From a virus (Duplodnaviria > Heunggongvirae > Uroviricota > Caudoviricetes): a DNA stretch of 7,863 nucleotides. Made by a program: the position numbers. The stretch is taken from positions 1 through 7,863 of IMG/VR virus record IMGVR_UViG_2713896897_000001. The stretch is one strand, 5' to 3'. Shown here piece by piece: positions 3,001-7,863 of this stretch; the stretch's first letter is position 1, and each line of letters begins with the position of its first letter.

Positions 3001-6000
3001 TGAACTGTGGGGAGCATGGGTTTATTCAGGTCGTCTGGAAAAGCGCATGAGCAGCGTAATAGCGAAGTTCATGGAGAGCGTAGAGCCGGGAAGAGTTATG
3101 ACAAGGCCAATGTGTAATGATGATGATGGAATGTTGATTTCTCAGGTCGTCGATTCCGTCATGTACATTGACAAGAAAGCCTTTGGCATCCTCCTCAGCT
3201 ACTACGCTCATGGATCTTCCAAGCACGCCATTGCATCTTACTATCATCGTGTCGCAAGACCTCGCAAGATGTTATGCCGGGGCGGCGGGCGCATTCAAAA
3301 ACCATCGCTCGCAACCTGTCGCCGGGAAGTTGACGAAATCCTCAATGCCTCGTTGTTTATGATTTATCCGGCTCTGGATAGTGCGTTTAAAAACCGGAAA
3401 CGTGTAGAGAAAATTAAACATATAGCATAGAACGTGTTGACATCATTGAGCAAATGAGCAACACTATTCGCATAAGCTGCCGTTAGTGACTCTTAAGTTG
3501 CAGCGGTGGCTTTTTTTATTTGGGTCAGTCGTATAAAGGTCATTACGGAAGGCTGTTAACCTTCTTATCGTGGTTCGAGTCCACGCTGTCCCGCCAAACA
3601 TGCTGGTTTAGCTCCAATGGCAGAGCAGTCGCCTTGTAAGCGAATGGGTAGCGGTTCAAGTCCGTTAACCAGCACCATAACTGAGCCGTAGCCACTGGCT
3701 ATCCTGAATTCATCAGTGATAGTTATGCTGCGGCCTTCTTTTTTCCCCTTCCCAATATAAGAACTACGCAATCCGTTACTGGCGGAGGCGTTGCTATGAA
3801 ATCAATGGACAAAATCTCAACTGGCATTGCCTACGGAACATCTGCTGGTAGTGCGGGATACTGGTTTTTGCAGTGGTTGGATCAGGTCAGTCCGTCACAG
3901 TGGGCTGCGATTGGAGTGCTTGGAAGCCTTGTATTGGGCTTTCTCACCTATCTGACAAATCTGTACTTCAAAATCAGAGAAGACAGACGAAAGGCTGCGA
4001 GAGGTGAATAATGCCTCCATCATTACGAAAAGCCGTTGCTGCTGCTATTGGTGGCGGGGCTATTGCCATAGCATCTGTGTTAATCACGGGTCCAGGTGGT
4101 GATGATGGTCTGGAAGGTGCCAGCTACATACCATACAAAGATATTGTCGGTGTATGGACTGTATGTCACGGACACACCGGAAAAGACATCATACCAGGTA
4201 AAACGTATACCGAATCAGAATGCAAAGCCCTCCTGAATAAAGACCTTGCCACGGTCGCCAGACAAATTAACCCATACATCAAAGTCGATATACCGGAAAC
4301 AACGCGCGGCGCTCTTTACTCGTTCGTTTACAACGTGGGCGCTGGCAATTTCAGAACATCGACGCTTCTTCGCAAAATAAACCAGGGCGATATCAAAGGC
4401 GCATGTGATCAGCTACGGCGCTGGACATACGCTGGCGGTAAGCAATGGAAAGGGCTGATGACTCGCCGCGAGATTGAGCGTGAAGTCTGTTTGTGGGGGC
4501 AACAATGAGCAGGGTAACCGTTATTATCTCCGCTCTGGTTATCTGCATTATCGCCTGCCTGTCATGGGCTGTTAATCATTACCGTGATAACGCCATCGCC
4601 TACAAAGAGCAGCGCGATAAAGCCACATCCATCATCGCTGATATGCAGAAGCGGCAACGTGATGTAGCAGAACTTGACGCCAGATACACAAAGGAGCTTG
4701 CTGATGCTAATGCGACTATCGAAAGTCTCCGTGCTGATGTTTCTGCTGGGCGTAAGCGCCTGCAAGTCTCCGCCACCTGTGCAAAGTCAACGACCGGAGC
4801 CAGCAGCATGGGCGATGGAGAAAGCCCAGGACTTACAGCAGATGCTGAACTCAATTATTACCGTCTCCGAGGTGGAATCGACAAGATAACCGCGCAGGTT
4901 AACTACCTGCAGGAATACATCAGGACGCAGTGCTTAAAATAATTTTAATTTCACTGAAATTTAACAAGTGACTTTCAGGAAAATGCCTCGCAGATGCGGG
5001 GCATTTTTGTACCGGTATTTCACCGCGCACCGCAGCGCACAATAAACACCGAACCTGACCCTTTGGAATGGGCCTTTGAGGATACCAGTTAGTGCTGGCG
5101 AGCCTCGGTGGGCTGGTTTCCTGTGCGGCAAAGGTTCATTTCAAAGAAGCAGGCAACGCCATGAATGAATTAATTGCGAATCATGACTTCGACTTTCGCC
5201 AGTTAGTTACCGCAGCAGAAGGTCAACCGGTAACTGACACCTTCCAGATTGCCAGGGCATTTGGTAAACGCCATCAGCATGTGATTAGGGCTATTAAATG
5301 TTTGAGATGTTCTGAGGAATTCTCGACAACCCATTTTTGGGCCGTCGAGAAAATCAATGACTTAGGTATTTTTGACAAGAAACAGATTTACTACCGCATG
5401 GACTTTAGTGGCTTCGTTATGCTGGTTATGGGATTTAACGGGGCAAAAGCCGATGCTGTTAAAGAAGCCTATATCAATGCGTTTAACTGGATGTCAGCAG
5501 AACTCCGTAAGTACAGCGAAAGTTATGAAGCAGAACGTAACGCCGTAATGCTGGAGTACATGAAAGAGAAGGATGTCGCCAGCATGTCAGGCCGTCTGCT
5601 CAATCGCTGGGGGAGAACGAAAAAACCTCAATTGCTTGCAAAGCTGGAACGTCTGGAGAGACAGGGACAGTTTTTATTACCGGGATTCGATAAAGGTATT
5701 CAAGCCTGACACATTATGCGCTGTATCGTCGCCGTATTCCCGCATTAACCATGACCGTAGCCCGACGGGGAATTCCTTCTGCGTGAGTGTGCGGGAATAA
5801 TCAAAAACGATGCACACCGGGTTTTACTGTGCTGACAGACGCAGGGTTACCCTCATAGTCGCTTTTCCGGTGCGATGGTGGAAGAAACAGGGATGTTCAT
5901 CCATCATCACTTTGGATTGATGTATATGCTCTCTTTTCTGACGTTAGTCTCCGACGGCAGGCTTCAATGACCCAGGCTGAGAAATTCCTGGACCCTTTTT

Positions 6001-7863
6001 GCTCAAGAGCGATGTTAATTTGTTCAATCATTTGGTTAGGAAAGCGGATGTTGCGGGTTGTTGTTCTGCGGGTTCTGTTCTTAGTTGACATGAGGTTGCC
6101 TCGTATTCAGTGTCGCTGATTTGTATTGTCTGAAGTTGTTTTTACGTTAAGTTGATGCAGATCAATTAATACGATACCTGCGTCATAATTGATTATTTGA
6201 CGTGGTTTGATGGCGTAGATGCACGTTGTGATATGTAGATGATAATTATTATCATTTTGCGGGTCCTTTCCTGCGATCCGACAGGTTACGGGGCGGCGAC
6301 CTCGCGGGTTTTCGCTATTTATGAAAATTTTCCGGTTTAAGGCGTTTCCGTTCTTCTTCTTCGTAACTTAATGTTTTTATTTAAAACACCCCCTGAAAAG
6401 AAAGGAAACGACAGGTGCTGAAAACGGGCTTTTTGGCCTCTGTCGTTTCCTTTCTCTGTTTTTGTCCGTGGAATGAACAATGGAAGTCAACAAAAAGCAG
6501 CTGGCTGACATTTTCGGCGCGAGTATCCGTACCATTCAGAACTGGCAGGAGCAGGGAATGCCCGTTCTGCGAGGCGGTGGGAAGGGTAATGAGGTGCTTT
6601 ATGACTCTGCCGCCGTCATAAAATGGTATGCCGAAAGGGATGCTGAAATTGAGAACGAAAAGCTGCGCCGGGAGGTTGAAGAACTGCGACAGGCCAGCGA
6701 GACAGATCTCCAGCCAGGGACTATTGAGTACGAACGCCATCGACTTACGCGTGCGCAGGCCGACGCACAGGAGCTGAAAAATGCCAGAGACTCCGCTGAA
6801 GTGGTGGAAACCGCATTCTGTACTTTCGTGCTGTCGCGGATCGCAGGTGAAATTGCCAGTATTCTCGACGGGATCCCCCTGTCGGTGCAGCGGCGTTTTC
6901 CGGAACTGGAAAACCGACATGTTGATTTCCTGAAACGGGATATCATCAAAGCCATGAACAAAGCAGCCGCGCTGGATGAACTGATACCGGGGGTGCTGAG
7001 TGAATATATCGAACAGTCAGGTTAACAGGCTGCGGCATTTTGTCCGCGCCGGGCTTCGTGCCCTGTTCAGGCCGGAGCCACAGACCGCCGTTGAATGGGC
7101 GGATGCCAGTTACTATCTCCCGAAAGAATCCGCATACCAGGAAGGGCGCTGGGAAACACTGCCCTTTCAGCGGGCCATCATGAATGCGATGGGCAGCGAC
7201 TACATCCGTGAGGTGAATGTGGTGAAGTCTGCCCGTGTCGGTTATTCCAAAATGCTGCTGGGTGTTTATGCCTACTTCATAGAGCATAAGCAACGCAACA
7301 CACTTATCTGGTTGCCGACGGATGGTGATGCCGAGAACTTCATGAAAACTCACGTTGAGCCAACCATCCGTGATATTCCGTCGCTGCTGGCGCTGGCTCC
7401 GTGGTATGGCAAAAAGCACCGGGATAACACGCTCACCATGAAGCGTTTCACCAATGGTCGTGGCTTCTGGTGCCTGGGCGGTAAAGCGGCAAAAAACTAC
7501 CGTGAAAAGTCGGTGGATGTGGCGGGTTATGATGAACTTGCTGCCTTTGATGAGGATATTGAACAGGAAGGCTCTCCGACGTTCCTGGGCGATAAGCGTA
7601 TTGAAGGCTCGGTCTGGCCAAAGTCCATCCGTGGCTCCACGCCCAAAGTGAGAGGCACCTGTCAGATTGAGCGTGCAGCCAGTGAATCCCCGCATTTTAT
7701 GCGTTTTCATGTTGCCTGCCCGCACTGCGGGGAGGAGCAGTACCTTAAATTTGGCGATAAAGAGACGCCGTTTGGCCTCAAATGGACGCCGGATGACCCC
7801 TCCAGCGTGTTTTATCTCTGTGAGCATAATGCCTGCGTCATCCGTCAGCAGGAGCTGGACTTT

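Follow-up and report, generated by a model that had tools for sequence, protein, structure and literature searches.

A conserved DUF3950 gene beside the right cohesive end of a lambdoid prophage, a candidate stand-alone ribbon-helix-helix regulator

The closest described relatives of the gene considered here are ylcI (DLP12) and ynfO (Qin) of Escherichia coli K-12; they belong to the same protein family, YlcI/YnfO (DUF3950), and are essentially the same gene. It lies in a 7,863-nucleotide stretch of a tailed-phage genome (IMG/VR virus record IMGVR_UViG_2713896897_000001, positions 1 to 7,863), referred to below as the window. The K-12 loci have the same orientation as the window gene and the same place beside a Nu1 homologue. 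The DLP12 protein is identical to that of phage lambda and 95% identical to that of the window; the window allele has R35 in place of the G35 found in most alleles, and its tail reads QSDDG where that of lambda reads KSDEE. YnfO-type alleles have an unrelated tail and 77 amino acids (aa), unlike the 64 aa of the window protein. The family is already catalogued, so the open reading frame (ORF) is a known kind of gene. On balance, the ylcI-type protein is probably an autonomous ribbon-helix-helix (RHH) transcription regulator with its own conserved control region.

A length of 64 aa is not proof against chance, since the ORF list of the window holds dozens. The ORF is real because it matches a family profile, Pfam PF13132 (DUF3950; 72.6 bits, E 2.4e-20, residues 21-49 aligned to positions 1-29 of the 30-position profile), because dN/dS is low and because diversity is concentrated at third codon positions. 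NCBIfam NF041551 (YlcI/YnfO) also matches, with 37.6 bits; both scores exceed the curated cut-offs (25 bits for PF13132, 30 bits for NF041551). Against phrog_949 the score is 118 bits, and a near-identical prophage gene is named ylcI by PGAP/RefSeq. Group medians of dN/dS are 0.03-0.12 in all lineages tested. Between the window and a Shiga toxin (Stx) phage allele there are 19 synonymous and 8 non-synonymous changes over 50 codons (omega 0.07), and in 77 haplotypes the diversity at codon positions 1, 2 and 3 is 0.004, 0.008 and 0.029. The ORF is a genuine gene under purifying selection; the absence of protein-coding selection, which would have told against the preliminary description of this stretch, is ruled out. 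That description of a sole minus-strand gene encoding a 64-aa basic protein is exact: the translation has 13 K/R and 6 D/E residues, a net charge of +7. The gene converges on a Rha/ORF11CD3 gene, and its upstream side is AT-rich up to the cohesive end site, cos (GC content 0.42-0.44), again as first described.

The ORF-plus-spacer block is present in 3,976 of 5,426 complete E. coli genomes, in up to 12 copies per genome, annotated as ylcI or ynfO. The right end of lambda, named at the outset as the region to compare, carries the same ORF (roughly 48116-48304, minus strand), about 95% identical to that of the window; lambda RefSeq NC_001416 has no annotation for it. A conserved gene under purifying selection, present in about three quarters of complete E. 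coli genomes, is missing from the RefSeq record of the most studied of all phages. The name 'orf-64' in the lambda literature was considered for this ORF and rejected; it belongs to lambdap73, between Q and S, and invites confusion with the unannotated right-end ORF.

The DUF3950 family is small and confined to Enterobacterales. Protein searches were flooded by error-ridden copies of lambda control DNA, and about 20 representatives are genuine. Such DNA contaminates public assemblies of Kitasatospora, Cohnella, Streptomyces and Staphylococcus and assorted metagenome-assembled genomes (loci L009-L043). Hundreds of error-ridden contigs of ~3.5 kb inflate the apparent diversity of the family, and most 'representatives' at 50% identity are sequencing noise. 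A scan of viral contigs returned 80 near-identical loci, which were of no use for footprinting. In the induced 16.5-kb element vB_KppS-Ant a DUF3950 homologue (L170 7364-7537) is unannotated; it lies antisense inside a 324-aa 'hypothetical protein', which is probably a spurious call.

The family core reads K/R-x-I-R-F-P, helix, short loop, N-F-S-A-W-V-x-E/D-A-C. In the window protein the NFS motif stands at the start of the second helix (N36-F37-S38-A39-W40-V41); in the family alignment F37 and V41 are invariant, while N36, S38, A39 and W40 are at least 90% conserved. The near-invariant NFSAWV..AC motif lies in the region of helix B, and includes a near-invariant cysteine. An AlphaFold model built from 22 genuine members has moderate confidence (pLDDT, predicted local distance difference test, 69) and shows an extended N-terminus followed by two helices. 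In this monomer model the RNIRFP segment does not form a strand, which is what would be expected if the protein is an obligate dimer.

In fold searches, five of six RHH structures superpose at 1.1-3.0 Å over 37-45 residues; the top structural match is TacA2 (4.5 Å over 48 residues). The Foldseek list consists mostly of NikR, Arc, ParD, MazE, HicB, MatP and CdbA, with most superpositions at 1.3-1.9 Å over 35-41 columns and some up to 3-4 Å over 48-49. RHH proteins head two fold searches, none significant singly; every Foldseek E-value is at least 0.78. The segment T12-R13-N14-I15-R16-F17-P18 has the pattern of an RHH strand and aligns to Arc Q9-F10-N11-L12-R13-W14-P15; hhalign places N14-I15-R16-F17-P18 onto Arc N11-L12-R13-W14-P15 with a probability of 2.4%. 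These tests agree though none is significant alone, and the DUF3950 protein very probably has an RHH fold. The C-terminal tail is the exception to the conservation of the protein: its diversity is 0.044, versus 0.004-0.008 at core codon positions 1 and 2, and alleles end at 64, 66, 75 or 77 aa with unrelated tails.

Upstream of the gene, positions 6092-6211 have a diversity of 0.007 in the 77 haplotypes, which is the level of cosQ-cosN and about 4-fold below third codon positions. The adjoining spacer up to cosQ (6212-6260) is about ten times more variable. This points to a constrained control region that belongs to the gene and is distinct from cos. It lies opposite to the late operon, and the conserved upstream region is 120 nt long. 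This region contains a 33-bp palindrome, which is an unproven candidate operator on its sequence. As a repeat family the palindrome was equalled in 51 of 200 shuffles, which is not significant, and for repeats in the window spacer neither the k-mer nor the 12-mer family test was significant; consequently, the palindrome and four TTGAT half-sites are not claimed as an operator. An operator common to the window and to the upstream regions of Stx/HNH-type relatives was considered and rejected, as only loose similarity was seen (TTGAT..CTGC..TAACGTA). An RNA explanation for the conserved spacer and the gap 3' of the gene was also rejected (no Rfam hit; folding z-scores -1.4 to +0.1).

In E. coli K-12, the transcripts of ybcW and ylcI converge and overlap in at least half of the RNA-seq samples analysed with ExcludonFinder (PMC12288877); the DLP12 copy is therefore transcribed in the uninduced state. 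The genes named in reviews of lambda lysogens are cI, rexAB, lom and bor only, and the right-end ylcI-type ORF is absent from them; it also falls outside the set targeted in the CRISPR interference essentiality map of lambda. Reports of ylcI 'mutations' in two evolution studies were set aside as low-frequency calls with no functional content.

No co-directional partner gene is found in the window, lambda, PhiR34_1, an Stx phage, satellites or chromosomal loci. Strong selection acts on the lone copies in the chromosomes of Tatumella, Pantoea, Rouxiella and Citrobacter and in Salmonella SPI-5. Lone chromosomal DUF3950 genes occur in Salmonella arizonae/diarizonae (L049, L051) and at other loci (L047, L059, L063); one lies in SPI-5 between sopB and pipD, and others are beside copper-related loci (copC/copD, a DUF2946-like gene, a TonB-dependent receptor). 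The lack of a toxin-sized partner and the selection on lone chromosomal copies argue for a stand-alone regulator, not an antitoxin.

Two sets of results weigh against a stand-alone RHH regulator. Firstly, no significant RHH match was found with sequence profiles. The sub-threshold matches are phrog_228 'Arc-like repressor' (E 0.029), phrog_497 (E 0.009), RHH_6 in one family member (E 0.092) and, in a profile search, PDB 9kkd (CopG; E 0.81), which is the only PDB sequence match in the expected register; a direct PDB sequence search gave nothing. The marginal Arc-like, HicB-like, RHH_6 and CopG-structure matches all share one register. Secondly, sigma-70 promoter scans of the gene strand in the window gave no convincing site, the best (TTAACG-19-TACAAA) being poor; a clear terminator for the ylcI-type gene was also not found.

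In the proposed mechanism, the DUF3950 protein most likely dimerises into an RHH DNA-binding domain, in which the RNIRFP strand would read the major groove, and would act alone as a sequence-specific transcription regulator. It would be expressed from its own control region, as are bor and lom; because it lies on the strand opposite the late operon, expression would fall largely in the periods without late transcription, namely the prophage state and the early phase of infection. The protein probably acts as a repressor both of its own promoter and of one further target. Its constant place beside cosQ and cosN can be explained by membership of the right-end mosaic block. A stand-alone RHH protein with a conserved control region is directly testable. 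The preliminary description had suggested an RHH repressor or antitoxin that might regulate genes or packaging across cos, and is partly supported: the RHH component is supported (fold model, Arc register) and a regulator is the favoured reading; the antitoxin component fails on the missing partner and the swapped tail, and the packaging component is disfavoured by the absence of the gene beside several Nu1 genes.

Many DUF3950 members are found outside phages, in int/AlpA/primase satellites of Enterobacterales, some with TerS and capsid genes. In these the gene is on the opposite strand, divergent from the main operon, which is the position of a repressor. Upstream, a 12-mer of the GTG...CAC type, particular to each element, recurs three to four times (near -100, -77 and -30); these arrays are significant against shuffles in 9 of the 14 regions tested. 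In one satellite (L004, an E. coli element in CP027459) two GGTACGTACC palindromes flank a perfect TATAAT. Judged by sequence, this is the layout of a repressor-controlled divergent switch. One caveat is that the first gene across belongs to the phrog_6196 'transcriptional repressor' family, and this protein, not DUF3950, could bind the satellite repeats. The global repressor in Gram-negative phage-inducible chromosomal islands (PICIs) is unclear (Fillol-Salom et al. 2018, PMC6092414). DUF3950 in satellites is a concrete candidate for how Gram-negative satellites stay silent, and this comparative finding could be of greater interest to the field than the copy in the window.

The phage copy might accordingly have its target in a satellite, acting in trans either to keep the satellite repressed or, as a helper signal, to poison its RHH repressor via heterodimers. 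The repressor position beside operator arrays is consistent with this, as are DUF3950 paralogues in satellites with Stx-type-related TerS genes; phage copies have no operator arrays of their own, as expected for a target elsewhere. However, the case is comparative: phage and satellite proteins are 33-49% identical and differ at strand position 14, no satellite operator sequence was matched in the window, and the lone chromosomal copies show that the family works outside the phage-satellite context. Satellite cross-talk is thus an unlikely explanation of the window gene. The broader proposal, that DUF3950 proteins are RHH switch repressors of Gram-negative int/alpA/primase satellites and that the lambda/Stx right-end copy talks to those circuits by silencing or by subunit-exchange triggering, is quite unlikely. 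If it were true, the RHH-TerS-HTH (helix-turn-helix) fusion described below would be a satellite device aimed at the cos region of the helper.

In L004 (6001-8881; also L006 and L007) a capsid- and TerS-encoding satellite lies directly beside a prophage terS with an in-frame stop after codon 61. This junction recurs in independent assemblies, which suggests that the satellite inserts within or next to helper packaging genes.

The window gene is closely linked to the packaging site. The last base of lambda aligns to window position 6290, and the region homologous to lambda begins within the 3' end of the ORF, near 5880, and continues through cos. In locus L046 the ORF, spacer, cosQ and cosN are ~98% conserved; homology ends at about 6336, before cosB and Nu1, and the Nu1 of L046 is only 35% identical. 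In Stx/HK97-like phages a family member lies 41 bp away from the HNH gene in front of cos-TerS-TerL and is divergent from it. The gene therefore keeps to the right-arm end irrespective of the type of small terminase.

This linkage raises the possibility of a packaging-linked factor, a protein that binds right-end DNA on the cosQ side and modulates terminase, end protection or packaging termination. The phage gene always adjoins the packaging site, divergent from the first packaging gene; the ORF, spacer, cosQ and cosN form one conserved block; and the association extends over three small-terminase types (lambda Nu1, the 35%-identical Nu1 of L046 and HNH-cos-Terminase_2). There is also a conserved satellite protein in which DUF3950 is fused to a second domain; this domain and the N-terminal DNA-binding domain of Stx-phage TerS are 64-66% identical. 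DUF3950-Terminase_2 fusions are a rare form, with five protein clusters 44-67% identical to each other, and the second domain passes the Pfam Terminase_2 cut-off. GTTAAC-type repeats are found both in the cos region of the Stx phage and 5' of the fusion gene. In the Stx phage (L169 3376-3496) six GTTAACA copies lie between HNH and TerS, where 0.5 are expected; they are probably the TerS binding sites of the cos region.

Against a packaging role, no family member is found beside Nu1 in PhiR57_1 (phage 21-type), N15, PhiR12_1 or Pseudomonas Riah; the ORFs at the equivalent spot in 21-type and PhiR12 phages were examined and are not DUF3950 members. The family is thus absent beside some Nu1 genes and present with three unrelated or diverged small terminases, and as these Nu1 phages lack it, it does not serve as a component of packaging in general. 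Between the conserved region of the gene and cosQ lies a hypervariable stretch, the gene is antisense to the late transcript (not the orientation expected of a late packaging protein), and there are no recognisable cos sites beside the chromosomal and satellite copies. In lambda, a ~200-bp cosQ-cosN-cosB segment with Nu1, A, FI and IHF is enough for packaging. A role in packaging is thus an unlikely alternative.

Lambda DNA enters the cell right end first, so that an inward-reading gene 200 bp from this end might have an immediate-early role, such as anti-defence or end handling; lambda-type and HNH-type phages alike keep the gene in the same position and orientation with respect to the right cohesive end. 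However, the protein has no similarity to known anti-defence proteins, its predicted fold is that of a DNA-binding regulator, and family members are retained in defective prophages and chromosomes, settings in which the entry of DNA plays no part; such a role is very unlikely. Least likely of all is an antitoxin, either an orphan or one left over from a type II toxin-antitoxin pair after loss of the toxin, since no co-directional toxin-sized ORF is found in ~50 divergent loci or in lambda-type alleles from phages, satellites and chromosomes (nor, as first noted, in the window), lone copies are under strong purifying selection, the C-terminal tail, which is the toxin-binding part of antitoxins, is the least conserved part and is swapped between alleles, and there is no PADLOC match.

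From its ORF, Pfam and tRNA calls, the window covers the right end of a lambdoid prophage together with the beginning of its left end (Table 1). The gene order is two antirepressor-like genes, NinG, Q, two tRNAs, P21-type holin, lysozyme and Rz, followed by the Rha/ORF11CD3 gene, the ylcI-type gene on the minus strand, cos, Nu1 and the first part of terminase A. The plus strand carries every gene with Pfam support, the two tRNAs and the Rfam RNAs, which leaves the ylcI-type gene as the sole credible minus-strand gene; the PGAP annotation of the closest genome agrees on gene strands over this stretch. Long minus-strand ORFs are antisense to Nu1 and terminase A. The inverted repeat first placed at 5736-5798, between the convergent rha-like and ylcI genes, is present and extends over 5735-5799; it is possibly a terminator or insulator, and folding of the repeat and 3' gap is no better than that of shuffled sequence.

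Table 1. Coordinates of features in the window (positions numbered from its first letter)
Feature	Position	Strand	Remarks
c4 a1b1 target element	564-616	+	Rfam; directly 5' of the antirepressor-like gene 816-1496
isrK	577-653	+	Rfam, 77 bits
C4 antisense RNA	680-763	+	Rfam, 65 bits
Antirepressor-like gene (P22AR/ORF6N)	816-1496	+	
Antirepressor-like gene	1565-2293	+	
tRNA-Asn(GTT)	3522-3596	+	
tRNA-Thr(TGT)	3602-3677	+	
Rha/ORF11CD3 gene (antirepressor-like)	5092-5709	+	
Inverted repeat	5735-5744 / 5790-5799		10-nt perfect arms, 45-nt loop
ylcI-type gene (DUF3950 / YlcI-YnfO)	5897-6091	-	ATG start, 64 codons, TGA stop
Variable C-terminal tail, aa 51-64	5897-5941	-	site of mosaic joint
Predicted helix A (aa 19-32), loop G33-S34-R35-N36, helix B (aa 37-60)	5912-6037	-	AlphaFold2 and conservation
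Predicted DNA-reading beta-strand, R13-P18 (RNIRFP)	6038-6055	-	family alignment; I15 and R16 invariant
Conserved non-coding control region	6092-6211		5' untranslated region, presumed promoter and operator
Shine-Dalgarno GAGG	6099-6102	-	7 nt 5' of ATG; read from sequence
33-bp palindrome ATCAATTAATACG-N7-CGTCATAATTGAT	6161-6193		13-nt arms, 85% complementary; 70-102 nt 5' of ATG
Hypervariable spacer, control region to cosQ	6212-6260		diversity 0.075; 16 of 49 sites variable
Promoter-like matches	6226-6255	+	TTGTGA-18-TATCAT, GTGATA-16-TATCAT; 9/12
Palindrome ATGATAAT-A-ATTATCAT	6239-6255		within hypervariable spacer
cosQ (presumed), GGGTCCT	6261-6267		cosQ-cosN (6261-6302) diversity 0.007
cosN with 12-nt cohesive end GGGCGGCGACCT	6291-6302		
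ORF antisense to Nu1	6381-6920	-	
Nu1	6480-7025	+	
ORF antisense to terminase A	6946-7827	-	

The only promoter-like matches near cos face cosN and Nu1, and overlap the palindrome before cosQ. At the other end of the window, the C4 RNA elements and the antirepressor-like gene that follows (564-763 and 816-1496) are a P1/P7-type antisense-RNA immunity module inside a lambdoid nin region. The two tRNA genes lie between the Q antiterminator and the holin, which is where Stx phages carry tRNAs and toxin genes. Three Rha/ANT/P22AR-type antirepressor-like genes occur in 7.9 kb; the third occupies the Rz-cos interval, where lambda has bor.

Among known regulators, the best structural matches are the CopG/RHH_1 regulators and RHH antitoxins (StnY, TacA, CopA-SO, ParD, VapB and the C-terminal domain of HicB). 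RHH antitoxins are encoded in an operon with their toxin and have a toxin-binding tail; in contrast, genes of the window type are monocistronic everywhere and their tail is swappable. Arc and Mnt of phage P22 are, like the window protein, small basic phage-encoded proteins. Arc has an N-x-R-aromatic-P strand, a helix, a G-x-S loop and a second helix in register with the window protein, but neither Arc nor Mnt has significant sequence similarity to it. Arc and Mnt also differ in location: they lie in the immI region and control ant via defined operators, whereas the window gene is at the right end of the genome.

The DUF3950 satellites resemble systems controlled by Stl of Staphylococcus aureus pathogenicity islands (SaPIs) or Rpr of PICIs, and cI/cro-type switches, in having a divergent gene and three or four repeats spanning both promoters. 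Stl and Rpr are HTH proteins, unrelated in sequence to DUF3950; unlike these systems, the window copy is in a phage and has no satellite-type operator array.

The accessory genes bor and lom of lambda are, like the window gene, embedded in the late region; both are independently transcribed, and bor has the same Rz-to-cos interval and the same minus strand as the window gene. Uninduced transcription of the DLP12 copy in K-12 fits this bor/lom moron pattern. In contrast to bor and lom, which encode envelope proteins with demonstrated expression in the lysogen, the window gene encodes a predicted DNA-binding protein.

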